Source: a virus
Lineage: Duplodnaviria; Caudoviricetes
IMG/VR virus record: IMGVR_UViG_3300031801_001562
Reading direction: 5' to 3' (one strand)
Length of the DNA stretch: 64,000 nucleotides
Position 1 is the stretch's first letter. Every line of letters starts with the position of its first letter. This document shows positions 20,539 to 57,280 of the stretch, one piece after another. The notes under the pieces are model-generated. The model did no database searches and had not been told where the DNA came from. It worked only from the letters and a program-made list of their open reading frames with translations. A program made the position numbers and the translations under genes.

Positions 20539-20631
20539 TCAACGAAAGTCATATCCAATAAAAAGTGTGGCATAAGTTAAACCCAATGCAAGTATTATAA
20601 TTATTGCTAACCACATTAATTTCTTTTCCAT
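20539..20631 (-). CDS. 30-aa hydrophobic peptide inside the tmRNA intervening segment
   Basis: MEKKLMWLAIIIILALGLTYATLFIGYDFR*; fills nearly the whole spacer between CCA and G1. RBS is weak (AAGAAAG). Confidence 0.5.
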   Translation of the reverse strand: MEKKLMWLAIIIILALGLTYATLFIGYDFR

Positions 20632-20700
20632 AACTTTCTTTGGTGGAGCTGATCGGAATCGCACCGATGTCTTAACTGTTATCTAGATATGTCAACAGTA

Positions 20701-21345
20701 TCATCTGTATTTATTAACCCATGGAACTCTCACAGAAATATCCCTTTTTTCAGATATTCCGGTTGATTGGCCCTTATTAAAAAGAACTATAGGATAATCC
20801 AATTCTTCGTAATTAGAAAAATGTGCTGAATAATAAAAATTATCTGGTATACGAATAGGGTCTAATCTTTTCATCCAAAGATAAGTATCAAAGCCACCAT
20901 ATTTTTCTATATCTTCAAATTCAAATCTTTCCCAAATTTTTAAACTCGTATCTGGTCTCCATCCTAATATTGAAGAATTATATGGAGTACATAATATATC
21001 CCTATTTCTTTGATCTTCGAAATCATCCATATGTTCTCTCCAACGAGCCCATGGCGCACATAAATAATCTTGTTTTTCTACCCAATCAAATAAACTATCT
21101 ATATTACCTTTTATTACAACATCTAAATCAAATGCTAAAACAACATCTTCTGTAAACTGTTCTATTATTGGTGAATGATATAAAACTTTGGTCCACCATT
21201 TAGGAAGAATCGGTTCATCAAATACACGAAAATTTATATTATAAGTAGTATTTTTAAATACCATTTTTTCTAAACGTTGTATATCTTTTATAGTGTATTT
21301 GTCTCCTACACATATGCAGGCAACAGCTCTTCGCATAAAATTCAT
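20701..21345 (-). CDS. Putative GT-A glycosyltransferase
   Basis: CVGDKY...RL..MV, WWTK, FDLDVVI.GNID (DxD), NSSI..W; paralog of 23441-24190. Confidence 0.65.
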   Translation of the reverse strand: MNFMRRAVACICVGDKYTIKDIQRLEKMVFKNTTYNINFRVFDEPILPKWWTKVLYHSPIIEQFTEDVVLAFDLDVVIKGNIDSLFDWVEKQDYLCAPWARWREHMDDFEDQRNRDILCTPYNSSILGWRPDTSLKIWERFEFEDIEKYGGFDTYLWMKRLDPIRIPDNFYYSAHFSNYEELDYPIVLFNKGQSTGISEKRDISVRVPWVNKYR

Positions 21346-22034
21346 CGCCATTGGCCTATAACCATAAATCGTTTATAATTACCAAAATCTTTTTCTCCTT
21401 TATACCATATATTTTTTATTTGATTTTTTTCAGTTAATTCTTCAACATCCTTTACACAATTTATATGATCCGTTAAATCAATATAATCATTAGATTGTAA
21501 ACAAACAAAAGGATTTCCTTTAAAAGAAAATTGATTTGTAAAATCTTGCATGTGCTCACAAGATGTACAGATAATTAAATGTCTTCTTCTAAGTTCTTTT
21601 CTTTCGAAATAATCATCATGTTGAATTACTTTATATTTTGGATTAAAAATATTTTTATATTGAGCCATTACTTTTTGACAAACTTCGTCTGGATCATATA
21701 AATCAATTTGAGTTATTCTTCCTTTAGTGAACCTGTCAATTAATTCTATCAGGGGCCAACCAAACCAAGATCCAATTATTTCTATTAGAAGAGGATAATC
21801 CCAATCCGGATTACCATCAGGAAATCTAATACTTTCAGAAGAATCTTTTGAATATTTTTTAATATTATCAGGAGTAGTTATTCTTAAATCATTTAAAATA
21901 TCACACATCCATTTTTTAGATTCATATTGATCATCAGATATAGAATCATCAAAACTTTTTTCATATTCAGAATGATTATTTTTTATAAATTTCTGAACAG
22001 TATAATATGGTGAATTTCTAAAATTTTCTACCAT
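21342..22034 (-). CDS. Class I SAM-dependent methyltransferase-like protein
   Basis: QYESKKW, IEIIGSWFG, DLYDPD, ICTSCEHM, LQSNDY, HINCV. The Rossmann-like assignment is tentative. Confidence 0.5.
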   Translation of the reverse strand: MVENFRNSPYYTVQKFIKNNHSEYEKSFDDSISDDQYESKKWMCDILNDLRITTPDNIKKYSKDSSESIRFPDGNPDWDYPLLIEIIGSWFGWPLIELIDRFTKGRITQIDLYDPDEVCQKVMAQYKNIFNPKYKVIQHDDYFERKELRRRHLIICTSCEHMQDFTNQFSFKGNPFVCLQSNDYIDLTDHINCVKDVEELTEKNQIKNIWYKGEKDFGNYKRFMVIGQWR

Positions 22035-22888
22035 CTACCTACCACCATAAAACGCTTATAATAACCAAAGTCTTTTTCTCCTTTATACATAATATCTGAG
22101 ATTCCATTTTTCTCTGCTAATTCATTTGCACTCTCAACACAATTTTCATGTTCTGGTAAATCTATATAATCATTACTTTGTAAAACATAAATTGGTTTGG
22201 GAGTATCTTTATAATATTCTTTCATCTCGCCAATATCAGGCATATGTTCACATGAAGTACAAATTATCATGTGTCTGATTCTTTTATCATTTCTTTCAAA
22301 GTAATCACCAAATTGATTTATATTATAAGACGGTTCAAAATGATACTTATATTTTTGAACTACTTCTTGACATACTTCATCTGGGTCGTATAAATCAATT
22401 TGTTCAATCTGGACAATAGTATCTTCTAACATTTCTATTAATGGCCATCCAAACCATGCTCCAACAATTTCAATTTTAAAAGAATCCTTGCTCCCGAAAA
22501 GTTCAGGTTTTAAAATTTGACACATCCATCTTTTAGATTCATATTGCCCATCAGTAATAGAATCTAAAAGGTTTGAAGCATATTCTGGATAAGATTCATC
22601 TAAGAATCTTTTAACTTTCATATATGGAGACCATTCCATAGTATTATTATAATTTACTTCATCTTTTTCAAATTGCCCCAAAGTTCTTTCCCATTCACCT
22701 TTAGTTCTTTCCCATTCAATCGCATTCCGGCGTTTTTCGGTTGCACGTCTTGCATCTTCCTTGTCCCATTGTCCTGAAGTTTTTTCCCATAAACCTTCAC
22801 AACGTTGCCATTCAATATTAGCTGCGCGTCTATCTCTTTGGAGAATTTTTAAATCAATTTCCGCTTTTTTAAAATCTTTTATGAACAT
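22028..22888 (-). CDS. Methyltransferase-like paralog with a Trp-rich N-terminal extension
   Basis: Same motifs as 21342-22034 (QYESKRW, VGAWFG, TSCEHM, LQSNDY). Confidence 0.5.
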   Translation of the reverse strand: MFIKDFKKAEIDLKILQRDRRAANIEWQRCEGLWEKTSGQWDKEDARRATEKRRNAIEWERTKGEWERTLGQFEKDEVNYNNTMEWSPYMKVKRFLDESYPEYASNLLDSITDGQYESKRWMCQILKPELFGSKDSFKIEIVGAWFGWPLIEMLEDTIVQIEQIDLYDPDEVCQEVVQKYKYHFEPSYNINQFGDYFERNDKRIRHMIICTSCEHMPDIGEMKEYYKDTPKPIYVLQSNDYIDLPEHENCVESANELAEKNGISDIMYKGEKDFGYYKRFMVVGRW

Positions 22889-23454
22889 CCTACCACTATT
22901 GAATATTTAACTTTTTGAAAATCATATTCTTCTTCAAATAAAACATCATTCAAATTATTCTGCTCTATTAATTGTTGGGTTGACATCACGGGATTGCATG
23001 AATATAAACGTTGTCTATTATTCCCGGCTAAAATGAATTTTCCCTTATGTACTTTACCGATAGGATATGTATCTTCACAAAATTTGTGAATAATGGGCCC
23101 CTTAAATTTTATATCATCGAATATAACATCTGTGCAATAAATGTTATCACTTATGAGTTCACAATCTTCACATACATAAGGATCTGAATCATAATATGAT
23201 ATATTATAACCTAATTTTTCTATTTTATCAACATGATAATTCATATACCAAGAACAGACGATATTCAAATCATCTTCATCAAAAAATTGAGTAATTAAAG
23301 AATGAATCTTATCATTTAAAACAATATTATATCGATTATTGGCTGAACCTAAATTATGTCGTCTATTTTCCAGTGTACTATACCACAAAGTATCGTATGC
23401 ATTTTCCGTTCCATATTTTGAAATAGAAGCAGCGAACTTTTCAAATTCTATCAT
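22879..23454 (-). CDS. Divergent third paralog of the methyltransferase-like family
   Basis: The C-terminus CNPVMSTQQLIEQNNL..VLF....Y..VVG aligns by eye with HENCVESANELAEKNG...F.VVG. Start is uncertain (23454 or 23493). Confidence 0.45.
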   Translation of the reverse strand: MIEFEKFAASISKYGTENAYDTLWYSTLENRRHNLGSANNRYNIVLNDKIHSLITQFFDEDDLNIVCSWYMNYHVDKIEKLGYNISYYDSDPYVCEDCELISDNIYCTDVIFDDIKFKGPIIHKFCEDTYPIGKVHKGKFILAGNNRQRLYSCNPVMSTQQLIEQNNLNDVLFEEEYDFQKVKYSIVVGCS

Positions 23455-24190
23455 AACTGCTCCACATGTCAAGAGCCCAACCTTTTGCTTCATGCAACTC
23501 TACATGAGTTTCATTAGGTTTCGCCCATTTTTTATGAGAAGTATTAAAAAGACATATCTTATAATCAGATCTATATTCTGTTGGATTTAAATCATCTGAA
23601 TATTTACAACCTATATTATAATTATATACATTTCCTGGTAACCAAAAATCTAAATTATTTTTTCTATGTTCCTGATAAAACAAATATTTGTCATATGAGG
23701 GATATGTAAAGAAAGCCTTTTCCTTATTTCTAACTAGCCTCTCATACATATCAAATCCAACATCGTCCTGCCAGGAAACAAAAGAAGAATTAATCGGAGT
23801 CGTCATATATCCATAATTAATTTTTGCCGCTTCATTGTTTCTCCAATAATTCCAAATATAAGTTACCTTATTCTTTTTTCTGTCTACTAGATCGGTTATA
23901 TTATTTTGAATTAAGATATCTAAATCAAACCAAGCCTTAGATCCGGAGACATGTTTATATCTATCGAAATAACACATCTTTTCGGATGTAAATATTTGTG
24001 TTCTTGGAAATTCGGAAAAATCATCTGGTATACTTTCTATTTTTATATCTGGATCTATACCAGTTGAATTATCAGTAAGACATGTAAAATTAAAAGGATT
24101 ATTATAATGTTTTTTAAGACTCTTGAAAAGCCTATTAACATATAATCTATTATACTTGGTTCCCCATTTCAAACAATAAAAATTTGTCAT
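23441..24190 (-). CDS. Putative GT-A glycosyltransferase
   Basis: CLKWGTKY...YVNRL..SLK.H...F.FTCLTD, FDLDILI (DxD), INSS...W. Confidence 0.7.
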   Translation of the reverse strand: MTNFYCLKWGTKYNRLYVNRLFKSLKKHYNNPFNFTCLTDNSTGIDPDIKIESIPDDFSEFPRTQIFTSEKMCYFDRYKHVSGSKAWFDLDILIQNNITDLVDRKKNKVTYIWNYWRNNEAAKINYGYMTTPINSSFVSWQDDVGFDMYERLVRNKEKAFFTYPSYDKYLFYQEHRKNNLDFWLPGNVYNYNIGCKYSDDLNPTEYRSDYKICLFNTSHKKWAKPNETHVELHEAKGWALDMWSSYDRI

Positions 24191-25227
24191 TTCCATTGAT
24201 CTCTAAAAGCATCAAAACCTGATCCACACTTCTCAGCACATACTGTAGATTTACCATCTGCGCAAGAAGATATATTCCAACTTTTTTGTAATTTTTTAAA
24301 GAATCCACCTTCAATAATATTTCGAAGAGGTGTATGAAGTGCATTAATATCTTTTAAATCATCGAAATATGACCATATCTGATTTTCACCTATTTCTTGA
24401 TAAGCTTTATAAAATCTACCTGCTGTCCAACAACAGGGAGTTACTAAACCTTCAGCACTTATATATATTTCATTATTATCTAATGACTTACATGTGATTT
24501 TTGTTTGATCTAAATACTTTTGAAAGGAACCATGACTCTTAATCAATTTATCATAGCTGTTAACGCTCTTATTCTGATTTTCTGGATTAGTTGGTGGCTT
24601 AATCTCATTCCCCTTAGTGGTTATCTTTTTATCAACTTTCTTACCTTTATAGCTTTGTACCCACCTACCAGTTTTTTTTCTTACAAATTCGAGTCCGAAT
24701 AATTTAGCCATTCTTTCCGCTTCTTCGACTTGATGTTCATTATGTTCAAAAATTAAATATACCCAAATACCCTTACCGCCGGCTTGAGTAAATACATCCA
24801 TGGCATGTTCTACCTTTTTCCAATTTACATTAACTCGATATAAATGATTTGTATCTTCTAAGCCATCTACACTAAAAGTAACCTTTCCTCTAGATCCTAA
24901 TATTAAAACTAATTCTTTCCACCAATCATCATCTCTAGCTCCAGCATTTGTAGTCATATGAAGATACATTTTAGGATTATTAACTCTAAGATATCTAAAA
25001 ATGGAAAGCGTATCATTAGACACAAGTGGATCTCCATGATTACCACACATCAATAAAGAATTTAATTGATGAACAAAATCTATATCAACCATGCTCATGA
25101 AATTATTCAAAGATAATTCAGCATTTTTCATATGTCGATTATTTGTCCTGTCACACATCGGGCATTGTGCTTGACATCTTTGTGTTGGTTCTAAATGAAT
25201 ATGTTTTATTTGATCCGAAATATACAT
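24187..25227 (-). CDS. Radical SAM protein with C-terminal Cys-rich auxiliary (SPASM-like) domain
   Basis: CQAQCPMC; CGNHGDP; C-terminal C...G...PCCW...C...C. Confidence 0.9.
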   Translation of the reverse strand: MYISDQIKHIHLEPTQRCQAQCPMCDRTNNRHMKNAELSLNNFMSMVDIDFVHQLNSLLMCGNHGDPLVSNDTLSIFRYLRVNNPKMYLHMTTNAGARDDDWWKELVLILGSRGKVTFSVDGLEDTNHLYRVNVNWKKVEHAMDVFTQAGGKGIWVYLIFEHNEHQVEEAERMAKLFGLEFVRKKTGRWVQSYKGKKVDKKITTKGNEIKPPTNPENQNKSVNSYDKLIKSHGSFQKYLDQTKITCKSLDNNEIYISAEGLVTPCCWTAGRFYKAYQEIGENQIWSYFDDLKDINALHTPLRNIIEGGFFKKLQKSWNISSCADGKSTVCAEKCGSGFDAFRDQWK

Positions 25228-26346
25228 TTAATAAAAACTTTCAAACTCTGGCCACTCATTAAGTAAATTAGTTTTATTTCTTTTATCACATAATTTAAGA
25301 AAATTCATTCCTTCTATAAAAATATTATTATCAACCGGAATATTTAATTTTAATAAATTTTTTATATCATCAGAAATATATCTTTGATTTTTGCCTTGAT
25401 ATAATTTTTTCACTCCGTTTGGCAAACAATCTATTGTAAAATAACCGGGAACAACTAATAAATTTGATAATGGTGATAATATATTAAAATTCTCTTTTAA
25501 ATAAATTTGTATCTCATCTAAGTAACCAACATTTAATGTTTGAACCGTAACTTCAAATCCTATAGGATATGTTGATTGTAATTTTTTAATATTCTCGATC
25601 TTTTTTTTCCAAACAGTTCCGGTTCTAATATATTCTTCTTTTTTATCAATCCCATCTATAGAAATATTAAAATATAATTTTTTAAATGCTTTTTTATATT
25701 GAAATAAATGTCCGGGAATTTTTGTGGCGTTAGTAAGAGTAGATATTTTTATTTTTTTTGAAAATCCATGACCGATAAGCCACTCTAAAAAATCATAATA
25801 TCCATCAGTCATTAACGGTTCGCCGCCCGAAATAATTATTCTTGTTACAGAAGGTAAAATCTCTTTTAAATCTTCATAAGTTTTTTTATTAAAAGTATTT
25901 TCATATATTGGCCATTCTCCTTCATTATATTTCTCCTTATGTTGCGACCAGGCGGACGAAGATTGTGGACCGCACATCAAACATTTGAGATTACATAAAT
26001 TTCCAAATTTAATTTTAAAGGTTGGGTTATTGGGAATTAATTTTTTGCCTTGTTTAAATTTTTCTACTTGTCCCGCATAATCATTCTTTAAACTTTCTTT
26101 TCTTCTGGAATTCAATCCGAGATCTTCTCGTTTCCAACAGGATTGACAAATATCTAATCTTTTATTTTCTAAAAAAGCTTTTCTTTTATCGTTGATATAA
26201 TCAGAATTAAAATATTCTAAAATAGAATACTTATCACTGAACATTTTAGATTCACCTAGATTATCACAGCATAATTGATATTCATTGAATGAAGAAACAG
26301 TAAATTGTGTAAAAGGGAGAGCGCAGAAATTTTTTAATTTTTCCAT
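25228..26346 (-). CDS. Radical SAM protein with N-terminal SPASM/twitch-like domain
   Basis: N-terminal C.LPF...CC...C..C; core CNLKCLMC, SGGEPL. Confidence 0.9.
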   Translation of the reverse strand: MEKLKNFCALPFTQFTVSSFNEYQLCCDNLGESKMFSDKYSILEYFNSDYINDKRKAFLENKRLDICQSCWKREDLGLNSRRKESLKNDYAGQVEKFKQGKKLIPNNPTFKIKFGNLCNLKCLMCGPQSSSAWSQHKEKYNEGEWPIYENTFNKKTYEDLKEILPSVTRIIISGGEPLMTDGYYDFLEWLIGHGFSKKIKISTLTNATKIPGHLFQYKKAFKKLYFNISIDGIDKKEEYIRTGTVWKKKIENIKKLQSTYPIGFEVTVQTLNVGYLDEIQIYLKENFNILSPLSNLLVVPGYFTIDCLPNGVKKLYQGKNQRYISDDIKNLLKLNIPVDNNIFIEGMNFLKLCDKRNKTNLLNEWPEFESFY

Positions 26347-27362
26347 AGAGGAAATTTATTTTCAGGTTTTCTTTTTGGAATTTTACTATCTGCAGAACTT
26401 ACACAATTATCAGTTATACAAGGCATGAGCTTATCAAATAATTTAAATCCGGTTTCAATATTTCCTAGAGGTACATCTGAGCAAGAATATGACCGCTTAA
26501 TGCTCCCACAAGGCTCGCGTATAATAATACTACGATACCCCGACGAACAGATCCAGCCTTTGAATTCATTAAAATTAAACGCATTAAATCTCTCAGCTTG
26601 ATCCACTTCATATATATTTCCTTTTGAATCTACTAAATCTATTTCACGTTCTGTTGGTCTGGAATCATTATGTAAAATATCTAACTGTCCTTGTGTATAT
26701 CCATCTACAACTTTTGTAGCTGTCGGATTTGATTGTGGTTTTAGTGTTGTGTGTATACCACGATCTTTAAAATATAAAACATGTTCTGTTAGTTCCCAAA
26801 ATCTTTCTGGAATCATCACCATATTAATTGTTATTCTAATTCCATTATCTTGAAGAAAAACTAACTTATCAGCAAAATCTGCTATCTTATCTTGTGTATT
26901 TAAAGCTTCAAAATGTGCGGAAGCAGTAATAGAAGCCTTATCAAATTTATTCGCGTATTTAATATATGTTTCAAACCATTTTATTTTACGAGAACAATTT
27001 GAAGTCATATGTATGCGCTGACGATTACAATTATCTTCATCATCTGCTAGGTGTTGTAGTATATCCAAATAGCCGGGATGAAAGGTCGGCTCTCCTCCGG
27101 ATAAAGACCAATTGAAAGAATTAAATCCTTGTTTTCTTGCTTGTTTTTTTATGCTATCAATTGTCTTAATACAAAGTTCAGTTGGTCTATGATCTTTTTT
27201 ATCTGATCTAGCATACGGCCAACAATAGGAACATTTGTAATTACAAAATCTACCTAACAACCAAGATATTGTAAACGTATCTCGATACAACATTGTTTTA
27301 GTACCGAGAGCTTCAATATCCTTCCATGGTATTTTTGTAAAATCTTCTTCATTGCGTCGCAT
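26334..27362 (-). CDS. Radical SAM protein with C-terminal FKGWxC auxiliary domain
   Basis: WLLGRFCNYKCSYC; SGGEPTFH; start may be 27374. Confidence 0.9.
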   Translation of the reverse strand: MRRNEEDFTKIPWKDIEALGTKTMLYRDTFTISWLLGRFCNYKCSYCWPYARSDKKDHRPTELCIKTIDSIKKQARKQGFNSFNWSLSGGEPTFHPGYLDILQHLADDEDNCNRQRIHMTSNCSRKIKWFETYIKYANKFDKASITASAHFEALNTQDKIADFADKLVFLQDNGIRITINMVMIPERFWELTEHVLYFKDRGIHTTLKPQSNPTATKVVDGYTQGQLDILHNDSRPTEREIDLVDSKGNIYEVDQAERFNAFNFNEFKGWICSSGYRSIIIREPCGSIKRSYSCSDVPLGNIETGFKLFDKLMPCITDNCVSSADSKIPKRKPENKFPLWKN

Positions 27363-28260
27363 GAACAAAATCAAATTGTTTAGGTGTATAATTCATTAAA
27401 TTCATTTCATTATCCATATCCCATAAAGGGGCTGTCAATGTGTGAACATTTTCAAATTTTCCTTTAAATCTTGCATACACCTTTGTTATTAATTCTTCAT
27501 ACTTTGGCAAATACATAATTTTAATTTTACAAGGTAAATTTACTTCTTCACAAAATCGTTCTAATTTATTAATATACCTATCATTAATAAATTCTGGATG
27601 TATTGAAAAATTTATTAATGAAAGTTTATTTAATTCTTTTAAATAGGATACTTGCTTGGTGCCGTTAGTTAAAGTCCAAATTGTCGCTTCGGGTACTTTT
27701 TCTTTTAACCATTTTACAAAATCTATATAATGAGGAATAAGAGTTGGTTCTCCTCCTGAAATAGTTATTTTTTTAACATTTAAGGGATTAACTTTGGTCC
27801 AGGCTTCTTGCATTCTCTCCAAGGAAGTCCAGGAGCCTTTATAATCATGGCTACGAGGGTCACAATAAGTGCAGCTGAAATTACACCTACGATCAGTATA
27901 ATAATCAACGGCAACACCAACATCACTCGTAACAGCGTAAATTTTATCATGGGGTTCCAACTTTCCTTTTAGTCTCATATTGTCTATCATTAATAAATGA
28001 TCTTCAGTCCGACCTTTTGGCATCGCTATATCAGTACCACAAAAACAATTTTCATTAGGACATACTATTGTTTTAGGTTCTGTATATTCATCTATTGAAA
28101 CTGGATAAGGTGTCCTACATACCGCAGTGCCTACCTCCCACCATGCAGCATCAATAATATAATTCGTTTGTTTACAATGCCATCCTTTAAAATTAGTTCT
28201 ATTTTTAATAGTTTGATCATCACAAGATTTTAAACCATGGTCGGTTAAAACTTTAAGCAT
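27349..28260 (-). CDS. Radical SAM protein with N-terminal FKGWxC auxiliary domain
   Basis: N-terminal FKGWHC...C...CPNENCFC; core CNFSCTYC, SGGEPTL. Confidence 0.9.
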   Translation of the reverse strand: MLKVLTDHGLKSCDDQTIKNRTNFKGWHCKQTNYIIDAAWWEVGTAVCRTPYPVSIDEYTEPKTIVCPNENCFCGTDIAMPKGRTEDHLLMIDNMRLKGKLEPHDKIYAVTSDVGVAVDYYTDRRCNFSCTYCDPRSHDYKGSWTSLERMQEAWTKVNPLNVKKITISGGEPTLIPHYIDFVKWLKEKVPEATIWTLTNGTKQVSYLKELNKLSLINFSIHPEFINDRYINKLERFCEEVNLPCKIKIMYLPKYEELITKVYARFKGKFENVHTLTAPLWDMDNEMNLMNYTPKQFDFVHATQ

Positions 28261-30667: not shown

Positions 30668-30668
30668 A

Positions 30669-35929: not shown

Positions 35930-35930
35930 A

Positions 35931-37106: not shown

Positions 37107-37109
37107 TTT

Positions 37110-37778: not shown

Positions 37779-37802
37779 AATTATTTCCTTATTAAATTTT
37801 TA

Positions 37803-42025: not shown

Positions 42026-42026
42026 A

Positions 42027-42884: not shown

Positions 42885-42899
42885 TTAATTCCCTTTTGA

Positions 42900-43979: not shown

Positions 43980-43987
43980 ATAATTAT

Positions 43988-49037: not shown

Positions 49038-51232
49038 AAATTATATCTCCAAATATTTTGTTTTACATTATTAAACATTTTACATTCCACCAAATCCACG
49101 ATACCTTTTTGGGATAACTTTTTCATAATGTTTGAAAATTTATAACTCCTGACACCAGTTTTAGAATCTACATTATTTGTTAAATAATATGGACCGACAC
49201 CGCCGGTAATTTCCTTTTGGATGTTTATATGGCTCCATTGATACGAACTTTGTGTAATATCTCTCGATACTTTTTTTACATATCCAGGAAGAGAAGCGCC
49301 TCTGAATAATAAGCGGTATCCTTTTAATTCTTCCTCCCATTTAACCCCACTCATAGAAATTAAAGTTGAACCTATAAAAGTTCCCACCCATTTGGCTTCA
49401 TTATATTTGATACTTTTTAAACTCACATTATTATTGTATCTTGAATATGAACATTCAACTAAAAATTCCAATATTATCAGTAAATCATCATCATTTAATA
49501 ATCTATTCCCACATACTATACTACTTCCAAACCGGTTCGGATGCAGCCGACCATAACCCGCACTTAAATTATGTATATGTTTATTAAAATATATGGATAT
49601 AAAATTTTCAATGTCCTTTAAAACTAAAATAATATTTTGTCGAAGATACTTGATGGAACGTGTATTATCAACCACATGATCATAGTCATCATATGTATTA
49701 TGAATATTATTTTTTATTTGATTATATAATACGCCTATGATTGTTGTTTGCATATCTTGAAACTTGGAAGTGATGAATATCGGATCACTTTCTAAATAAT
49801 CTTGAAATTTAACAAAAAAATCTTTTAATGTAACTTCATCTTTTAAATAATCATAATATATGTATTTTAATATTCGTTGTTCTCCAAACCAAAAATTCAT
49901 AACAATCCATGCGAACATCCAGCCTTTAACAACATCTTCATAAGACATAGATTTCAAAGAAGTAATTATTTCACATTCTTCCATGTCGACATTAAAAGGG
50001 ATAATTTTTGTTTTTATTTTAAAACGTTCCCTATAAGATTTATCATTAAGTTCCGCGTTAGGTAAAATCAAACAAGGATATACGTTTATTTTTAATTTTT
50101 TAACAGGCATTAACGCGGATAACTCATCAACCCACCCATCATACGTAGTACCTGGTAAGGGGTATATTAATTCAACTTCTCTCTCTGTAGAATCCATCTT
50201 ATCTGCATTGACAATGCTCATATTTTTTCTTTTAATATTAGATAAAACTTCTGGATTGGTAGATTGTAAAGCTACTCTAGGAACAGTATTATTATTCTCA
50301 ATACCCTCTAATAATCGTTGTTGTATTTGTAATGAAGAATTTTTACTTGGTGGTGTTTTTGCATAACCTGAGTGTGCTATTTTTTTGGGATAGCCTGTGG
50401 CTTCATGATATCCCACTGCCTTATCTATTATATTATAATCTCTTTCTTTAAATATGCCCAAATTACTATTTGTGAACCAAAGATAATTTATTTTATTACG
50501 ACTAACCCATTCGAATTCTTTAAATAATCGCGGTTCATCAAATTTTATCATTTTTTGTGCAGTTAAACTACCCCAATCACAAAAAGTACATTTAAATGGA
50601 CAACCTCTATCCATCTCAACGGTAGCGTGAAAATTAACCGAAGGATTTTTTAATATAATATTATTAAAAAGACCCGACAAATATGGACTAGGGATTGTAT
50701 TAATATCTTTAATTCTGGAAGCCGGCTTCGTTTTAAAAATTTTATTATTTTTTCTAAAAATAAGACCCGGTATCTCAGAAAAATCTTTTTTATTAAAATA
50801 TTCTAATAAAATTTGTTCAAAGACTTTTTCTCCTTCTCCCACAACACCAATATCTACATAGTCATGCGAATTATACCATTTGCTATCATTAGAATTAGGC
50901 ACATGTGGTCCGCCACAAATAATCAAACAATTAGGATACTTTTTTTTTATTTTTTTTAATATATAAAGGTGCTTATTAGAATTCCACATATAATTACTAG
51001 TAGCAACTATATCTGGTTGTCCCATATTATCAATATAATAATCTAAATTATCTATATTAAACACCAAATCTTTTAATATAAAATTATCGGATATTATTTT
51101 ATTTTGTAAACAATAAGACCAAAGAAGGCCGGCGGAATATGGTAAAAATGCCGATTTATTACTTGACATTTCAGTGCCAGTTGAAGAGTCTATTAAAGGA
51201 GCCGTTAATTGTAATAGATATATATTTTTCAT
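49034..51232 (-). CDS. Cobalamin-binding radical SAM protein with C-terminal extension
   Basis: LPYSAG.L, Y.WN, ICGGPH, GEGE, EMDRGCPFKCTFCDWG; paralog of 44988-46817. Confidence 0.92.
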   Translation of the reverse strand: MKNIYLLQLTAPLIDSSTGTEMSSNKSAFLPYSAGLLWSYCLQNKIISDNFILKDLVFNIDNLDYYIDNMGQPDIVATSNYMWNSNKHLYILKKIKKKYPNCLIICGGPHVPNSNDSKWYNSHDYVDIGVVGEGEKVFEQILLEYFNKKDFSEIPGLIFRKNNKIFKTKPASRIKDINTIPSPYLSGLFNNIILKNPSVNFHATVEMDRGCPFKCTFCDWGSLTAQKMIKFDEPRLFKEFEWVSRNKINYLWFTNSNLGIFKERDYNIIDKAVGYHEATGYPKKIAHSGYAKTPPSKNSSLQIQQRLLEGIENNNTVPRVALQSTNPEVLSNIKRKNMSIVNADKMDSTEREVELIYPLPGTTYDGWVDELSALMPVKKLKINVYPCLILPNAELNDKSYRERFKIKTKIIPFNVDMEECEIITSLKSMSYEDVVKGWMFAWIVMNFWFGEQRILKYIYYDYLKDEVTLKDFFVKFQDYLESDPIFITSKFQDMQTTIIGVLYNQIKNNIHNTYDDYDHVVDNTRSIKYLRQNIILVLKDIENFISIYFNKHIHNLSAGYGRLHPNRFGSSIVCGNRLLNDDDLLIILEFLVECSYSRYNNNVSLKSIKYNEAKWVGTFIGSTLISMSGVKWEEELKGYRLLFRGASLPGYVKKVSRDITQSSYQWSHINIQKEITGGVGPYYLTNNVDSKTGVRSYKFSNIMKKLSQKGIVDLVECKMFNNVKQNIWRYNL

Positions 51233-52236
51233 GCCGCGGCATCATTTAAAAATTTATAAGAATAATTTTCCCTAAAAAAATTAATTTGATATTTGGGTTT
51301 ATTCAATGTATGATATTTTTTTAAAGATCTCCAATATTCAGTATGATCATTTTTAGAAGAAGTGTAAAACAATTCTAAAAAATCATATACATGCCGACAC
51401 AATCTAACATATGAACGATTAAATATTTCCTCTTTATTTTTTTTATATTTTAATTTTTCAATAGTTTCTATCGCCCATGTTATTAGAAAAAGTCCTGTAG
51501 CTTCAAGAGGTTCTGCAAATCCACAACTTAATCCCACAGATACGGTATTCCCCAACCACGGAGTTAAACAATATCTATTATTAAAGGGAATGGCGCGAAT
51601 GTCTTCGGCTTTAACATTACCTACATTTTTATTTTTAAATTCTTCAATGGCATCATTTACACTTATAAAATTATTATTAAAAACATACCCATTACCACTC
51701 CTTGATCTTAAATCTACATTCCACATCCACCCATAATCCATAGCGAAAGTGTTTGTTATAGATTGACAATTAGAATCACCAGGCGCGAAGAGGGCCATAT
51801 TATTAGACAGAGTTTTATAAGAACCAAATTGTTTATTTTTAGAAAAATCACTATTGAATCCAGTACAATCTATTACTAGATCAGGATTATCCACTTTACA
51901 TAATCTAGGTCGCGTTATTTCTTCTAGAAGAATAATCATTTTTAACGCATCTAAATGATAAGCATGCATATTATTGGGAAACGGGTGTATCCAATCAGTT
52001 TTATGCCAACCATGATGTTTAATACCATATTTAATTACGCCGTCACACTTATTAATTACATCATCTTCAGATATTCCACAATAATCAAAGAATTTAACTA
52101 GTCCAGGTAATGTACTTTCTCCAACACCTATAGGTTTGGAATTTTTAGGAAGTTTTATTTCAACTTTATTAGTTTGGGATAAATATGCGGCAGCTAACCA
52201 ACCGGCGCTTCCACCGCCTAAAATTATTATGTTCAT
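51229..52236 (-). CDS. Tryptophan-halogenase-family flavoprotein (short form)
   Basis: GGGSAGW, GVGEST, IKYGI (Lys at the PrnA K79-like position), DCTGF, WMWNV, FAEPLEATG. Confidence 0.85.
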   Translation of the reverse strand: MNIIILGGGSAGWLAAAYLSQTNKVEIKLPKNSKPIGVGESTLPGLVKFFDYCGISEDDVINKCDGVIKYGIKHHGWHKTDWIHPFPNNMHAYHLDALKMIILLEEITRPRLCKVDNPDLVIDCTGFNSDFSKNKQFGSYKTLSNNMALFAPGDSNCQSITNTFAMDYGWMWNVDLRSRSGNGYVFNNNFISVNDAIEEFKNKNVGNVKAEDIRAIPFNNRYCLTPWLGNTVSVGLSCGFAEPLEATGLFLITWAIETIEKLKYKKNKEEIFNRSYVRLCRHVYDFLELFYTSSKNDHTEYWRSLKKYHTLNKPKYQINFFRENYSYKFLNDAAA

Positions 52237-52874
52237 AGACAAAGCTTCGTCCTTCTATAAGTTATATCCCATGACTTAAATTCTTGCAATGATTCTATCT
52301 TATAACCAAAACTATTTAAATATACTTCAATATCTTCTTCACTATGTCCATACTGTTTTAATTGATGAGGATATGCTTGATATACTATTGTAGGTAAATA
52401 TTTTTCAATAGTTCTTTCTAATCCTAACAATGCTTCATATTCCATACCTTTTATATGCATTTGTATAAAAGTAATATTTTTAAAATCGAAATCATCAATA
52501 ACTTTTACTATTACTTCTTCGCCTTCTTCTTCATTTAATTGATAACCTCCATAATTACCTTCTTGATCAGGCTTAGCAAATTTTTTGCTTTGTTTAGAAG
52601 CTGCGGCAAATGGAAATATTTTTACATCGGGTACATTTTGTCTTAAACATTCACAATTACTTTCTATAGGTTCCCAAGCATACACTTCATCAAACTTTTT
52701 AGTTAATTGCCTACTCCAAATACCAACATGAGCTCCTACATCAATAGCATTACCCTTAGGTACTGATTTAAGTATTTCTCTATGAATACTACCATCCATA
52801 GGAAAACCGCTTGAATGCATATATTCAAAAAATGAATCATCATCTTGTATGTAAAAGTTGCCTATCTTCTTCAT
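52233..52874 (-). CDS. FkbM-family methyltransferase
   Basis: AIDVGAHVGIWS, AWEP..N..CL..N, ID.F.F; start reassigned to the RBS-preceded ATG. Confidence 0.82.
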   Translation of the reverse strand: MKKIGNFYIQDDDSFFEYMHSSGFPMDGSIHREILKSVPKGNAIDVGAHVGIWSRQLTKKFDEVYAWEPIESNCECLRQNVPDVKIFPFAAASKQSKKFAKPDQEGNYGGYQLNEEEGEEVIVKVIDDFDFKNITFIQMHIKGMEYEALLGLERTIEKYLPTIVYQAYPHQLKQYGHSEEDIEVYLNSFGYKIESLQEFKSWDITYRRTKLCL

Positions 52875-53041
52875 TTCCCTCCGCGCTTCTTCCACTGCTC
52901 AGGATACTTTTCTCGTAATATCTCATCTATAGAATCTTCAAATGCTTTGCTATTTCTGCCTGGTTTATAAGTACAAGGAAATTTAAAATCTTTATTCCCA
53001 AAGTTTTTTTTCCAAAAGTTGACTATCTTGTTTATTATCAT
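52871..53041 (-). CDS. 56-aa hypothetical protein
   Basis: Hand translation MIINKIVNFWKKNFGNKDFKFPCTYKPGRNSKAFEDSIDEILREKYPEQWKKRGGK; ATGA overlaps at both ends. Confidence 0.7.
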   Translation of the reverse strand: MIINKIVNFWKKNFGNKDFKFPCTYKPGRNSKAFEDSIDEILREKYPEQWKKRGGK

Positions 53042-54462
53042 ACATGTACCATAGTCAAAAAATCATCATGTGTAATATTGTTTGAATAATCTATATCGTA
53101 ATCAGGCTCTGTCCAATCTACATATTTCATATTTTTTGTTTTGTTTAAGTACGGTTTTTCGTAACCAATTAACATTGATGCAAGGTTAAAATGATTAAAA
53201 ATGGTTTCTCCTTTTTTACAATATCTCTTTTTAGAAAGAAACATATTCAAATAATCATTATATTCTTCAATGTTTTGTTGATTATTCCAATATCTCCAAA
53301 ATTCGGAATCAGTTCTGTCACTCAATGTATAATGATATTTTACAAATTCTTTTGAATGTTTGAGAAATCTTTTGAGATGCCTAGATAAAACTTTAGATTC
53401 TTTTGAAGTCCATTTCTTTTTCTTTTTATATTGGTCTACAAAATTAATTACCGTCACACAGGTTAACATCAATGAAGTCGCTTCCATAGGTTCTATAAAA
53501 CTCTGTGCCAGCCCATTTGATATGCAATTATCGACCGCAACATTTTTCATAGATCCATTTTCATATTTTATGCAATCAAATACAAAATCTATTTGGCCAT
53601 TCCAAGCATCTTTTAAAATTTTTCTTGCCTCATCATCAGTAGTAAAATAATCTGAATAGATAAATCCACCCGCAGTTCTATTACGTGTGTTCACATCCCA
53701 CAACCATCCATCAGGTTTTGCAGTCAATTCCGTATAAATTTTATGTTGTTTAGGAACACCTCTGACTTTTCCAGCAACAAATTTATTACAAATCATGTCA
53801 TCATAACTTTCATAATCAGACAATTTTGAAATCAAAACTCTATTAAAACCAGAGCAATCAAAAAATACATCACCATATACGGTTTGGCCATTTTCTAAAC
53901 GTAAAAATTCTATACCATTTTCATTTATGCAAACATCTTTTACACCACTGGTAATTAATGTGTAATCATTGAGATGTTTCTGTAATGTCGCTCCAAATTT
54001 ATCTGCTAATATTTGATATGCATGCCCTGGTCGATCACTAATTGTTTTTGGATAAGGAGTTAAATTTTTATCAAGCAAATATTGTTGAGGACCGTGAAAT
54101 AAATTAAAATATTTTGTGGACATATCTAAATTATTGATACAATACTCAACAGAATCTACTTTTGTTTCTGAAAATTCGAAAGCATCTTCAAATAAATGAT
54201 ACCACACGCTACCTGAATAATTCCAATCATTAAATTTAATTCCATATTTAAATGTAGCATCACTATCTTTTAACCAAACATTTTCTGAAATATTTGCATT
54301 TTCGGCTATCAAACGCAATGTCGGTGTTACTGTTTCACCAACACCAATCGGGTTATTTTGCTCTTCGTGAATAACTGTCAACTCACAATCAATAGAATTT
54401 TTTATATAACTAGCAGTTGTCCAACCTGCGGAACCGCCACCGACTACTACGATTCTAACCAT
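53038..54462 (-). CDS. Tryptophan-halogenase-family flavoprotein
   Basis: VVGGGSAGW, IGVGE, TFKYGIKF.DW, DCSGF, WLWDV, FIEPMEAT. Confidence 0.9.
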   Translation of the reverse strand: MVRIVVVGGGSAGWTTASYIKNSIDCELTVIHEEQNNPIGVGETVTPTLRLIAENANISENVWLKDSDATFKYGIKFNDWNYSGSVWYHLFEDAFEFSETKVDSVEYCINNLDMSTKYFNLFHGPQQYLLDKNLTPYPKTISDRPGHAYQILADKFGATLQKHLNDYTLITSGVKDVCINENGIEFLRLENGQTVYGDVFFDCSGFNRVLISKLSDYESYDDMICNKFVAGKVRGVPKQHKIYTELTAKPDGWLWDVNTRNRTAGGFIYSDYFTTDDEARKILKDAWNGQIDFVFDCIKYENGSMKNVAVDNCISNGLAQSFIEPMEATSLMLTCVTVINFVDQYKKKKKWTSKESKVLSRHLKRFLKHSKEFVKYHYTLSDRTDSEFWRYWNNQQNIEEYNDYLNMFLSKKRYCKKGETIFNHFNLASMLIGYEKPYLNKTKNMKYVDWTEPDYDIDYSNNITHDDFLTMVHV

Positions 54463-55592
54463 TGTGTTAAATATGGATGTAAATAATTTTGAAATTGTTG
54501 ATTTCGAGAAAAATCAAATAGTGTAATTTCTTTAAGCATTTTCTTTTTATTTTCCACATTTCTTTTAAAATATGAATTGCGTATTTGATTAAACTTTTTC
54601 GAATCTATCCGAGGAACTTTTTCTAACAATTGTCTGCTTAGATGAATCGGGCTTATACCTCGATTATCTGGATATACTTCACAATATGAAACATAAACTT
54701 TTTTAGGTAAGGTGCAACACCATTGCCAATGATTAAGCAAATCTAAAATATTTAAAGCAGAAACAACAACTGCCACATTAACTCTTCCTAAATTTGTAGA
54801 AGTTGTTAAAAATAATCTTATGGTCTTATCTAGTTCATCAAACGATTGAGGATATCTTATATATTCGTAACCTTCTTCAACTGAATCTATACTTAATTTA
54901 GGATGCTGCTTTTTAAATTTATTTAATTTTTTAATTAATCGATCGTTAAACATTGTACCATTAGTATGATACGCAAGAATAGTATTTTTAGCCCATCCAT
55001 TATCAATATATTTATCGAGAAGTTTCAAAACTTGTGTATCAAAAAAAGGTTCCCCTCCACTGAATCTAAGTTCCTTTAAGGGATTATTTAAAAGCCAATT
55101 ATATTGTTTTGAATTGGAAGTTTTGGGAATTGTAATCCGCCCCCTAAATTTACCAGATGTAGACTCTTCAACTTCATGAAGTATGCCTTCTTTGCTAAAG
55201 AATTCATAATCTAACATTAATCTATGACTCGTTTGAGGATCACACATTCTACAAGCCAGATTACATTTATTAGAAAAAATGAAATCAACTACATCTAATT
55301 TTCCTCTGGGAATAGTATCATCATTATGGATTCTGAAAGATTCGATACCTCTATCTTCCATATCCCAACAAGTTTTACAAAATGGATGTTTTATATTATT
55401 AGATAAAGCTTCGCGTAATTCTTTAAATTGTTTTGAATTAAAAGCTTCTTCGGGGGTAAGATCTGTCTCTTCCCATTCCATTGGGTCTTCCCAATCGGGT
55501 CGTGACATATTACAACAAGGATGAAACCATTTAATTTTGTCTCCATCCCAATCTCTAATTGTAATTTGTTTAAAGGGATAACTACATAACAT
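54447..55592 (-). CDS. Radical SAM protein with N-terminal SPASM/twitch-like domain
   Basis: CSYPF...PCC...CKTCW; core CNLACRMC, SGGEP. Confidence 0.9.
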   Translation of the reverse strand: MLCSYPFKQITIRDWDGDKIKWFHPCCNMSRPDWEDPMEWEETDLTPEEAFNSKQFKELREALSNNIKHPFCKTCWDMEDRGIESFRIHNDDTIPRGKLDVVDFIFSNKCNLACRMCDPQTSHRLMLDYEFFSKEGILHEVEESTSGKFRGRITIPKTSNSKQYNWLLNNPLKELRFSGGEPFFDTQVLKLLDKYIDNGWAKNTILAYHTNGTMFNDRLIKKLNKFKKQHPKLSIDSVEEGYEYIRYPQSFDELDKTIRLFLTTSTNLGRVNVAVVVSALNILDLLNHWQWCCTLPKKVYVSYCEVYPDNRGISPIHLSRQLLEKVPRIDSKKFNQIRNSYFKRNVENKKKMLKEITLFDFSRNQQFQNYLHPYLTQWLES

Positions 55593-56377
55593 TATTCTAC
55601 ATTAAAATCATCACTCGCAAAGCTTGCTTCCCAACCAAACTTTTTAATTTCAGTAGGATCAGCACAAGTTTCTTCGCTCTCACCGGTTACATTTTTAAAA
55701 TCAATTGAATCAATATCAATATCTTCCGGTGCATGTTCTTTAGCAAAATCATAAACAGATTTTGGTGTTCCATATCCAATATCAAAAACTTTAGGAAATT
55801 TTTTCCATACAGGAGTTTCAGTCATTAGTAAATATATAGCTTTTACACAATCTTTTACATATAACCAATCTCTCGTATGAGTTGTTAAATAATTAATATT
55901 TCCTTCTTGTAATTGTCTATAAAACATATCAGGTCGCGAATTCGATCCCCATACTGTAAAGAATCTCATTCCTATAGCATTAGTTGGTGCCATTACTTCA
56001 CAGACCCCTTTAGTCATTGCGTAAGGACTTTTCATATCCGAAACTGAAGAACTCGATGCATATAAGATTTTAGAATTTTTATAAGTATCAAAGATACGTT
56101 TTGTTCCCTTAATATTTACTTCATAATATTCTTTTAAATATTTTGGATCCCAACTATTACGAACACCGGCTCTCGCAGCTAAATGAACTACAACTTTTGC
56201 ATCAACATGAGGTAAATCATCTGTGGTAATATCACAATGAGAATGAGGAACTTCGCGATCCTCCCAACCTAATCCCGAACAATTATCAATACCATAAACT
56301 TCATGACCCTCTTCAGTTAAAAAATTAAATAAATGATGACCTATAAATCCTTTAACTCCAGTAATTAAAATTTTCAT
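55592..56377 (-). CDS. NAD-dependent epimerase/dehydratase
   Basis: ITGVKGFIG, HLAARAGVR, ASSSS, YAMTK, RFFTVWG. Confidence 0.92.
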   Translation of the reverse strand: MKILITGVKGFIGHHLFNFLTEEGHEVYGIDNCSGLGWEDREVPHSHCDITTDDLPHVDAKVVVHLAARAGVRNSWDPKYLKEYYEVNIKGTKRIFDTYKNSKILYASSSSVSDMKSPYAMTKGVCEVMAPTNAIGMRFFTVWGSNSRPDMFYRQLQEGNINYLTTHTRDWLYVKDCVKAIYLLMTETPVWKKFPKVFDIGYGTPKSVYDFAKEHAPEDIDIDSIDFKNVTGESEETCADPTEIKKFGWEASFASDDFNVE

Positions 56378-57277: not shown

Positions 57278-57280
57278 AAT

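Follow-up and report, generated by a model that had tools for sequence, protein, structure and literature searches.

What does a phage do with sixteen radical S-adenosylmethionine (radical-SAM) enzymes encoded side by side? The question is raised by a stretch of 64,000 nucleotides (the window) from the IMG/VR virus record IMGVR_UViG_3300031801_001562 (Duplodnaviria; Caudoviricetes), which contains an enzyme island of ~36 kb. An initial annotation, made from the letters of the sequence, had described this island as a diversified tailoring system without visible scaffold. We find its genes to be intact, under purifying selection and syntenic in relatives, in line with that description. With middling confidence, we read the island as a co-transcribed cytoplasmic pathway that tailors sugars or a glycan and is built around its radical-SAM families. 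Hypermodified bases and a host cofactor are less likely targets. In the following, genes are designated by the first coordinate of their entry in Table 1.

According to the listing of open reading frames (ORFs) of the window, 37 minus-strand ORFs tile positions 20701-56386. Adjacent ORFs overlap by 1-53 nt or are spaced by at most 24 nt, and the 142 nt at 52896-53037 are the sole clear intergenic gap. This bears out the earlier count of about 38 overlapping same-strand genes, with one ORF in doubt: 37803-38309 has stops in relatives, a ratio of nonsynonymous to synonymous substitution rates (dN/dS) of 0.37-0.64 and no family match in Pfam or PHROG, and is probably not a real gene. The credible enzyme genes thus number 36-37, all intact, over ~36 kb. 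The GC content is ~31% across the whole window and the GC skew is negative along the entire minus-strand block. Domain scans of the island proteins gave zero matches to nonribosomal peptide synthetase or polyketide synthase (NRPS/PKS), peptidase and transporter domains, and the prediction of membrane segments revealed no convincing membrane protein among the island ORFs. Neither a carrier protein nor a precursor of peptides that are made by the ribosome and modified post-translationally (RiPP) was found in the island, which has no free small ORF. The scans and the small-ORF search agree on this point with the initial annotation, which had listed NRPS/PKS, transporters, peptidases and RiPP precursors as absent.

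The radical-SAM proteins were counted from their CX3CX2C motif, which is present in exactly 16 island proteins, each backed by a Pfam match to Radical_SAM, SPASM or Fer4_12. Fourteen have extra Cys clusters and two are B12-binding (44988-46817 and 49034-51232), the same division as had been noted before. Ten proteins exceed the gathering score of PF04055 (29.5 bits), those at 28245 (27.8), 34502 (28.0) and 40958 (25.1) are slightly below it, and 39106 and both B12 proteins have no PF04055 match, yet they carry CX3CX2C plus a SPASM or B12-binding match. An all-versus-all BLAST of these proteins resulted in four groups. The first comprises eight proteins with a Cys-rich domain ahead of the radical-SAM core, the second three paralogues, two of which have a C-terminal SPASM/twitch by Pfam, the third two or three proteins of another type, and the fourth the two B12 enzymes. 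The family closest to the first group is NF033640 of NCBIfam (N_Twi_rSAM, "twitch domain-containing radical SAM protein"), whose curated cut-off of 170 bits is passed by 7 of the 16 proteins (25228, 28245, 29264, 34502, 35931, 39106 and 54447), with 40958 under it at 130 bits. In an alignment of the eight N-terminal-twitch paralogues, four N-terminal Cys (C15, C33, C97 and C100 in the numbering of 34502, ahead of CX3CX2C at residues 153-160), the CX3CX2C motif itself and a GGE motif are invariant. The Pfam SPASM matches of this group lie at residues 5-100. Both B12 proteins have the N-terminal cobalamin-binding domain and radical-SAM core that define class B radical-SAM enzymes. Their PF02310 scores of 33.8 and 32.2 bits are marginal relative to the cut-off of 32.1, and CX3CX2C lies at residues 209 and 211. 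The KedN5 subfamily (NF033712, cut-off 700) is the nearest model only, since they reach 234 and 203 bits.

One might think of a recent tandem duplication. We rejected it, because the radical-SAM paralogues of the island are only 21-34% identical to each other. The largest group is also far from confined to this phage. We found more than 3,000 metagenome homologues of 34502-35929, mostly unnamed, and at least 7,385 clusters (50% identity, E <=1e-30) match a profile of the eight N-terminal-twitch paralogues. This profile is too diverse for searches of loci, for which we used a profile of orthologues instead. Many of the top family representatives are proteins of 770-1400 aa in which two stretches match, as would be expected if two N-terminal-twitch radical-SAM units were fused in tandem. 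The long fusions of Bdellovibrionota (600-1495 aa) showed no informative extra Pfam domain, and some may be double radical-SAM proteins. Our literature search on NF033640 returned no paper on the family, its function, substrate or reaction.

To assess the conservation of the island, we compared it with eight related IMG/VR contigs, 84-97% identical for one radical-SAM gene, and a distant one at 32%. We checked for widespread pseudogenisation, a possibility raised in the initial annotation, and rejected it: in up to 7 related contigs, nearly all island genes have a dN/dS of 0.04-0.3, and there are no internal stops. These substitution patterns argue that the genes are functional and under purifying selection. 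In a relative of 167 kb, 100% complete according to IMG/VR, the 37 ORFs all recur with their order unchanged and with the same core genes on either side, and its gene-by-gene identity to the window swings between 97% and 44%. The island is a stable but mosaic feature, in which whole cassettes are swapped or added between relatives. For example, the halogenase cassette 53038-54462 has been replaced, since it is only 44-45% identical in relatives. Between its orthologues of 35931 and 34502, the complete relative carries a 5.1-kb insertion (its 11161-16311) that the window lacks, with seven ORFs, three of which have CX3CX2C radical-SAM cores. A DNA-level search of 50,697 phage records gave no match for the island or its flank.

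The same families are found in bacterial chromosomes. Among species-representative genomes, orthologues of 34502 with ~50% identity occur in dozens of Bdellovibrionales genomes. They belong mainly to Bdellovibrionales and Bacteriovoracaceae, and include one cultured isolate and several complete chromosomes of metagenome-assembled genomes (MAGs). In Bdellovibrionota, the chromosomal orthologues of 34502 and 26334 have 48-56% identity and those of 24187 ~38%; the three recur as a trio, with the 26334 type beside the 34502 type. Since these values exceed those between the island's own paralogues, the radical-SAM families are old and not recent copies. Of 121 Bdellovibrionota genomes that we sampled, 27 contain NF033640, a single genome having as many as 11 matches; its cut-off is passed in none of 14 control genomes. 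We then characterized 79 loci from bacterial assemblies, which hold 357 radical-SAM ORFs; they are mostly from Bdellovibrionota, and some few among the closest ones are phage-like contigs binned into MAGs. Their recurrent partners are family 2 glycosyltransferases (GT2; 22 and 16 loci), a carbamoyltransferase, a short-chain dehydrogenase/reductase (SDR) and an aminotransferase-like protein, together with homologues of the methyltransferase-like pair and of the QueC-like protein of the island. The commonest partner other than radical-SAM proteins is the homologue of 22028, present in 32-34 of the 79 loci. Arrays of 10-13 radical-SAM genes were found in Bdellovibrionota and Parcubacteria, next to GT2, GT4, GT28, carbamoyltransferase, DegT, epimerase, PhyH and PMT_2 genes.

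The maps of individual loci, drawn from precomputed Pfam matches, illustrate this pattern. The cultured Bdellovibrio sp. HCB2-146 has four radical-SAM genes with four GT2 genes, an acetyltransferase and an adjoining Peptidase_S74 fibre-type protein, a Bacteriovoracaceae chromosome has ten flanked by GT2 and PMT_2, and a Parcubacteria contig has twelve beside GT4, GT28, aminotransferase and Asn-synthase-like genes. In HCB2-146, the radical-SAM/GT2 region spans ~37 kb, at contig positions ~1,858,000-1,895,000. In Saprospiraceae, three radical-SAM genes accompany GT2, DegT, an epimerase, two PhyH and UbiA. A marine contig of 108 kb carries 5-10 by Pfam and a GFO_IDH_MocA-radical-SAM fusion, with Nucleotid_trans, epimerase and carbamoyltransferase genes. 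For comparison, 15 out of 37 radical-SAM loci gave GT2 matches, as opposed to 0 out of 20 regions of 20 kb taken at random from two of the same genomes (Fisher p 5e-4), a control that is partly circular, because the GT2 hidden Markov models were built from the GT2 proteins of the loci themselves. We found nothing relevant in the literature on radical-SAM/glycosyltransferase clusters of Bdellovibrio.

The island has its own signs of sugar chemistry. The protein at 23441-24196 is, as modelled, a GT8-like retaining transferase of GT-A fold. Its predicted structure has a predicted local distance difference test (pLDDT) of 92, its top Foldseek matches are LARGE1, alpha-1,3-GalT, glycogenin, LgtC and UGGT (E 2e-9 to 1e-6), the top 50 are nearly all sugar transferases, and its DxD motif (D91, D93) is invariant across 33 homologues. 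The two glycosyltransferases announced earlier thus hold, this one by fold and 20701-21351 by homology, and so does the epimerase, by its Pfam match at 55592-56386. Other assignments had to be adjusted. The two halogenase-like proteins do belong to the family by their Pfam Trp_halogenase matches: both exceed the cut-off of PF04820 and have the GGGSAG motif for flavin adenine dinucleotide (FAD) and a KYGIK motif with the conserved Lys. Halogenating activity is only putative, because the WxWxIP motif is missing from both. Among about five proposed Fe/2-oxoglutarate (2OG) oxygenases, Pfam supports the TauD-family and the two PhyH proteins, and 38125 and 47734 were read from motifs only. Given their H-Q-D motif, the PhyH proteins at 46814 and 43988 are presumably of the hydroxylase type. 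The canonical HxD/E iron motif is missing from the TauD-family protein, whose candidate site is H-A-N-E; its dN/dS of 0.13-0.16 nevertheless indicates purifying selection. Five methyltransferases had been proposed, of which the two FkbM proteins have Pfam matches, 21342 and 22028 come from a language-model atlas, and the fifth was not found.

The adenylating enzyme of the initial annotation was overstated. The AMP-binding fold piece is there, in a truncated fragment of 206 aa that begins at the P-loop, covers only profile positions 168-330 of 384 and aligns to FadD13 residues 161-298, without the N-terminal part and the C-terminal catalytic subdomain. This length is fully kept in relatives (dN/dS ~0.3), and none of the scanned neighbours supplies the missing ANL parts. 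The match of the QueC-like PP-loop ATPase is weak, its Pfam score lying below the cut-off of 22 bits. It has no NCBIfam match; among the loci from bacterial assemblies, 7 contain a homologue. On one further marine contig, a QueC-like gene comes directly after the orthologue of 34502, and a second marine contig has one within the same radical-SAM array; this adjacency and sharing suggest that the QueC-like protein and 34502-35929 could act on one intermediate. Three enzymes had been overlooked: the nitroreductase-family flavoprotein 37110, the aldo/keto reductase 40212 and 38639, which resembles nucleosidases of 5'-methylthioadenosine and S-adenosylhomocysteine (MTA/SAH). The latter has no direct PDB match; it matches by BLASTP (E 9e-14) an ORF of 185 aa from another radical-SAM-rich marine contig, which itself matches solved MTA/SAH nucleosidases (E 3e-10).

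The initial annotation had left the target fully open. We favour a sugar or glycan because the same radical-SAM families occur in bacterial clusters of glycosyltransferases and sugar-modification genes, and because the island has its own GT-A transferases and an SDR protein of the type acting on nucleoside diphosphate (NDP)-sugars. The FkbM methyltransferases and a nearby heptose/glycosyltransferase cluster are further sugar signals, and the pathway would be cytoplasmic, since no island protein has a convincing membrane segment. What follows on the sugar substrate, on the individual reactions and on the acceptor is inferred. Host NDP-sugars would enter the pathway, perhaps with NDP-heptose from the gmhA/GHMP-kinase/nucleotidyltransferase cluster. 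The SDR epimerase/dehydratase and the aldo/keto reductase would reshape these activated sugars, and the fourteen twitch/SPASM radical-SAM enzymes would abstract hydrogen from them, with possible epimerisation, deoxygenation/dehydration, oxidation and C-C bond formation. C-methyl groups would come from the two B12-dependent enzymes, other methylations from the FkbM and class-I methyltransferases, and hydroxylations from the PhyH, TauD and 2OG oxygenases. The QueC-like ATPase may amidate a carboxylate, and the nitroreductase-family flavoprotein could feed reduced flavin to the two halogenase-family enzymes. Every radical-SAM turnover has 5'-deoxyadenosine as a by-product, which 38639 would remove. 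Finally, the two GT8-like transferases would join the products to an acceptor, either a virion component or a soluble precursor passed to the envelope machinery of the host; the island has neither flippase nor polymerase.

Several observations weigh against this sugar pathway. No substrate is known for any NF033640 protein, nor for the two further radical-SAM groups of the island. The nearest structures and profiles mix peptide maturases (SkfB, CteB, TigE/8vpo) with viperin, MoaA and BlsE, and the predicted structure of 34502 (pLDDT 84) retrieves with Foldseek only generic radical-SAM cores at a template modelling score (TM) of at most 0.4, so sugar, peptide and nucleotide substrates are not separable by fold. 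A PDB sequence search with 34502 alone gave nothing useful. The half of the island with the oxygenases, halogenases and FkbM proteins (42027-56386) is not seen together with the radical-SAM arrays of the bacterial loci, and its target may be another part of the product. Flavin-dependent halogenases and an AMP-binding fragment would rather be expected with an aromatic substrate, or one derived from an amino acid, than with a sugar, and gene neighbourhood is indirect evidence for a substrate. The T4-type late-promoter motif TATAAATA, which is depleted in the window (7 copies for 18.7 expected), does not mark the island and has no copy in its gaps.

The alternative that best survives, although we consider it unlikely, is the modification of a protein or peptide, either RiPP-like or structural (e.g., a tail fibre), with sugars then added to the same protein. 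The peptide maturases named above are among the best structure and profile matches, and weak NCBIfam matches also go to peptide-maturase models, but far under their cut-offs. One marine radical-SAM array follows a DUF4815 protein, which we take to be of a phage structural family. The cluster of HCB2-146 adjoins a protein of 1959 aa with a Peptidase_S74 (endosialidase chaperone) domain; the window has its own S74 protein, of 739 aa, at 5230-7449. Peptide or amino-acid substrates have also been argued for the dioxygenase-halogenase arrays of cyanophage Syn9 (PMC2938197). The island itself, however, offers no precursor-like ORF and no matched peptidase or transporter domain, and across ~85 related loci no small ORF family that could be a precursor is conserved, the best one occurring in 6 loci. 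A system of the HXS type was rejected as well: HxS/SHG repeats are lacking from every frame of the window and of the loci fetched for comparison, where no other tripeptide-repeat protein was found either, and HxsC (TIGR03977) scores in the island at most 44 bits for a cut-off of 268.

We give still less credit to a halogenated, hydroxylated and C-methylated small molecule made from an amino or aromatic acid and possibly glycosylated, such as an antibiotic, a siderophore-like compound or a signal. Such a product would account for the two flavin-dependent halogenase-family genes with intact FAD motif and conserved Lys, a possible flavin reductase (37110), the AMP-binding fragment, B12 radical-SAM proteins closest to the model of a KedN5-type C-methyltransferase, and the PhyH and TauD oxygenases, and all proteins look soluble. 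However, there is no NRPS, PKS, carrier protein, thioesterase or exporter, the AMP-binding protein is missing two of its parts, and in the bacterial loci inspected the radical-SAM families lie beside glycosyltransferases and not beside secondary-metabolite cores. Least probable is the hypermodification of nucleotides or of DNA, perhaps sugar-bearing, by radical-SAM enzymes and a QueC-like ATPase that extend a 7-deazaguanine pathway or act on nucleotides: the island abuts a FolE/QueC/dCTP-deaminase-like operon itself without recognisable QueD or QueE, a radical-SAM gene adjoining a QueC-like gene, as seen again on one further marine contig, is reminiscent of the QueE-QueC steps, and there is profile likeness to the nucleotide-acting enzymes viperin, MoaA, BlsE and QueE, but QueE models give at most 31 bits on island proteins (cut-offs 206-300), QueC gives 17.6 for 22, no transferase like tRNA-guanine transglycosylase (TGT) or DpdA was detected in the island, the bacterial glycosyltransferase clusters with the same families hold no DNA-modification genes, and sixteen radical-SAM enzymes far exceed the needs of any known base-modification pathway.

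Table 1. Island ORFs in order from the first gene, with the evidence for each assignment (E-values and bit scores of profile matches) and gene-specific observations.
Feature	Position	Strand	Evidence	Further observations
Extended-SDR NAD-dependent epimerase/dehydratase, short, 264 aa	55592-56386	-	Epimerase E 7.5e-24, GDP_Man_Dehyd E 7e-19	First island gene; GxxGxxG and YxxxK motifs; dN/dS 0.13-0.30
N-terminal-twitch radical SAM, 381 aa	54447-55592	-	NF033640 203 bits	CX3CX2C at residue 110
Flavin-dependent halogenase family, 474 aa	53038-54462	-	Pfam Trp_halogenase E 7e-74, 250 bits	
FkbM-family methyltransferase, 220 aa	52233-52895	-	Methyltransf_21 E 3e-11	No orthologue at same position in relatives
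Shortened halogenase family, 337 aa	51229-52242	-	Trp_halogenase E 5e-62, 211 bits, two stretches	dN/dS 0.04-0.11
B12-binding radical SAM, class B, methyltransferase-like, 732 aa	49034-51232	-	B12-binding 32.2 bits (cut-off 32.1)	NF033712 (KedN5-type) 203 bits, under cut-off 700; CX3CX2C at residue 211; unassigned C-terminal extension; no PDB sequence match for C-terminal 188 aa
Truncated AMP-binding (ANL) fragment, 206 aa	48417-49037	-	AMP-binding E 2e-18	
231-aa protein, possible cupin/2OG-oxygenase-like	47734-48429	-	HxD and later H read in sequence only	No Pfam, PHROG, NCBIfam or PDB sequence match; dN/dS ~0.1
PhyH-family Fe/2OG dioxygenase, 308 aa	46814-47740	-	PhyH E 4e-9; H-Q-D motif	
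B12-binding radical SAM, 609 aa	44988-46817	-	B12-binding 33.8 bits; NF033712 234 bits	38% identity to 49034-51232
PhyH-family Fe/2OG dioxygenase, 338 aa	43988-45004	-	PhyH E 2e-11; H-Q-D motif	
TauD/TfdA-family protein, 359 aa	42900-43979	-	TauD E 1.5e-10	
FkbM-family methyltransferase, 285 aa	42027-42884	-	Methyltransf_21 E 3e-6	62-65% identity in all relatives; dN/dS 0.4-0.57, highest rate of evolution among credible genes
N-terminal-twitch-like radical SAM, 355 aa	40958-42025	-	NF033640 129.6 bits (cut-off 170)	CX3CX2C at residue 106
Short aldo/keto reductase, 249 aa	40212-40961	-	Aldo_ket_red E 2e-25	Profile positions 25-195 of 291
N-terminal-twitch radical SAM, 380 aa	39106-40248	-	NF033640 201 bits	SPASM at residues 14-80, ahead of core
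Remote MTA/SAH (5'-deoxyadenosine) nucleosidase-like, 160 aa	38639-39121	-	Homology via intermediate ORF	
174-aa protein, possible small 2OG oxygenase	38125-38649	-	H-T-D and later H read in sequence only	No family match (Pfam, PHROG); dN/dS 0.1-0.35
Doubtful ORF, 168 aa	37803-38309	-		185-nt overlap with next gene
Nitroreductase-family flavoprotein, 222 aa	37110-37778	-	Pfam Nitroreductase E 4e-12	
N-terminal-twitch radical SAM, 391 aa	35931-37106	-	NF033640 172 bits	87-97% identity in 8 IMG/VR loci
N-terminal-twitch radical SAM, 475 aa, "core" member	34502-35929	-	NF033640 402 bits	
QueC-like PP-loop ATPase, 270 aa	33693-34505	-	Pfam QueC 17.6 bits (sub-cut-off); PHROG E 2.5e-7	
Radical SAM, 409 aa from GTG start (true start may be later)	32561-33790	-	Radical_SAM E 1.5e-11	CX3CX2C at residue 51; 14 Cys in total
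Radical SAM with C-terminal SPASM/twitch, 328 aa	31585-32571	-	Radical_SAM E 8e-9, SPASM E 8e-4	
Radical SAM with C-terminal SPASM/twitch, 308 aa	30669-31595	-	Radical_SAM E 2e-12, SPASM E 8e-4	
N-terminal-twitch radical SAM, 467 aa	29264-30667	-	NF033640 210 bits	
N-terminal-twitch radical SAM, 340 aa	28245-29267	-	NF033640 217 bits	SPASM at residues 5-66
Radical SAM, no assigned subfamily, 303 aa	27349-28260	-	Radical_SAM E 2e-13, Fer4_12 E 2e-9	MoaA, HxsC, viperin and QueE models match weakly, far under cut-offs
Radical SAM, 346 aa, second "core" member	26334-27374	-	Radical_SAM E 2e-14	
N-terminal-twitch radical SAM, 372 aa	25228-26346	-	NF033640 276 bits	
Radical SAM, 346 aa, 10 Cys, third "core" member	24187-25227	-	Radical_SAM E 9e-8; no own SPASM match	24-29% identity to 30669-31595 and 31585-32571 (C-terminal SPASM/twitch paralogues)
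GT-A fold, GT8-like retaining glycosyltransferase (predicted), 251 aa	23441-24196	-	Predicted structure and Foldseek	
204-aa protein, 8 Cys	22879-23493	-		75% identical orthologue in complete relative; no family match (Pfam, PHROG)
Methyltransferase-like, 286 aa	22028-22888	-	Atlas feature search: viral methyltransferase-domain clusters, score 0.97	
Paralogue of 22028-22888, 230 aa	21342-22034	-	49% identity	
GT-A-like paralogue of 23441-24196, last island gene, 216 aa	20701-21351	-	31% identity, E 1e-7	DLD motif in sequence; weak PHROG glycosyltransferase match

The flanks of the island carry T4-type core genes: the gp5 OB domain, gp53, a T4 baseplate protein, tail tube, gp32, gp59, the late-transcription coactivator (gp33) and RNase H. 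With a gp32 ~53% identical to that of a cyanomyovirus, the phage is, by its gene content, best described as an uncultured marine T4-like myovirus, pelagimyophage- or cyanomyophage-like overall. The DNA-modification operon and the heptose/glycosyltransferase cluster previously reported on either side are as described. One flank has FolE, QueC and a dCTP-deaminase-like gene together with gp32, gp59 and gp33. This operon of the 7-deazaguanine type (15918-19508, minus strand; QueC at 16992-17780 with 179 bits) has no recognisable QueD, QueE or DpdA, and its ORFs 16388-16999 and 17958-18818 have no Pfam or PDB match, nor has the former an NCBIfam match. The other flank starts with a Cas4-like nuclease and RNase H, followed 4 kb upstream by the cluster of GmhA, GHMP kinase, nucleotidyltransferase and glycosyltransferase genes. 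Translational coupling with the first island gene is seen at 56377-57898 (minus strand) for the genes that encode the PD-(D/E)XK (Cas4-like) nuclease, a zinc-ribbon protein of 87 aa and a cell-wall hydrolase whose N-terminal segment is hydrophobic.

The last island gene is directly followed by a permuted two-piece gene for transfer-messenger RNA (tmRNA; 20357-20758, minus strand), which overlaps its 3' end and has 111 bits for Rfam tmRNA_permuted, 62 bits for alpha_tmRNA and no ARAGORN call. The alpha type of this tmRNA points to a host among the Alphaproteobacteria. Upstream of the heptose cluster, on a source-type contig that extends beyond the end of the window, are ThyX and a class II (B12-type) ribonucleotide reductase. 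This reductase and the two B12 radical-SAM enzymes imply that the host supplies cobalamin. Such a host fits poorly with SAR11, despite the alpha-type tmRNA. Near-identical DNA was found in seawater and hydrothermal-vent metagenomes of around a dozen studies, with a contig depth up to ~600x in one seawater run. In one seawater metagenome, window positions 24000-43999 have a word depth of ~600x and many variant positions, which indicates that the phage population is very abundant and microdiverse. Three RNA libraries from two studies contained contigs of 150-457 nt at a depth of 2-6 that match several island genes, with 0-3 mismatches for the best ones; DNA carry-over is possible, and stretches without cover carry no meaning. 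One copy of TATAAATA (8904-8911, plus strand) is just upstream of a plus-strand structural operon that starts at 8948. Compared with shuffled sequence, promoters of the sigma-70 type show no excess, whereas sites resembling terminators are less frequent.

How does the island compare with known systems? Cassettes with multiple radical-SAM genes have already been mentioned in passing in marine T4-like phages, without being analysed: a T4-like marine genome has 12 such genes (PMC5332604), and glycosyltransferases are reported from the hypervariable regions of pelagimyophages along with radical-SAM cassettes, in which two of these phages differ (PMC7029224). Shared with these are the T4-like marine type of genome, an alphaproteobacterial-type tmRNA, lipopolysaccharide-type sugar genes, glycosyltransferases and variable radical-SAM cassettes. 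Unlike the host-recognition cluster of PMC7029224, the island lies between replication and RNase H genes, and not beside tail fibres. The phage is not close to any cultured one, by its gp32 identity and the lack of a DNA match. The Fe-S A-type carrier (ATC; PF01521), which the genome of PMC5332604 bears, was not found in four related viral records. Syn9 shares with the island tandem PhyH/2OG oxygenases and two halogenase-family genes, but it has 10 dioxygenases and no reported radical-SAM array (PMC2938197), whereas here oxygenases are few and radical-SAM enzymes dominate. In comparison with NF033640, the island has the same N-terminal module of a 4-Cys twitch followed by a CX3CX2C core; that family is a sequence definition only, to which the island adds two other radical-SAM groups and two B12 radical-SAM proteins.

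The clusters of Bdellovibrionota, Parcubacteria and Bacteroidota share with the island the radical-SAM trio, the QueC-like and methyltransferase-like partners and arrays of 10-13 genes. They carry GT2, GT-C (PMT_2), carbamoyltransferase and membrane steps, whereas the phage island has soluble enzymes only and adds halogenases, PhyH/TauD and FkbM proteins and B12 radical-SAM enzymes. Glycan synthesis encoded by viruses includes the capsid or fibril glycans of chloroviruses and mimiviruses and the virion glycosylation of mycobacteriophages. Common to these systems and the island would be soluble sugar-nucleotide modification, transferases, methyltransferases and independence from host membranes. 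We know of no chlorovirus, mimivirus or mycobacteriophage glycan system that uses radical-SAM enzymes.

Radical-SAM enzymes catalyse some of the hardest reactions in biology, and around a fifth of the genome of an abundant phage is kept, under purifying selection, for the chemistry of this island. It is a large and well-preserved case of a kind of phage cassette that was noticed before and never explained. Its dominant family is large, with no published function found, and the same gene sets lie among sugar-transfer genes in predatory bacteria and ultra-small epibionts, a cross-domain link that can be put to the test: a cultured Bdellovibrio isolate carries an orthologous cluster and the phage enzymes are soluble. 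We also entertain, as a tentative and rather doubtful extension of the sugar pathway, that N-terminal-twitch radical-SAM arrays are an unrecognised form of combinatorial radical glycan editing, with one C-H functionalisation per diverged paralogue and cassettes exchanged between lineages. It would be common to marine phages, predatory Bdellovibrionota and epibiotic Patescibacteria, all of which depend on attachment to other cells, and would diversify a surface or virion glycan in a recognition arms race. If this were true, more than 7,000 sequence clusters would be opened to new carbohydrate radical chemistry. If the product of the island is a glycan, this would be, to our knowledge, the first virus-encoded glycan pathway built around radical chemistry, and it would bear on how marine phages or infected cells escape recognition.

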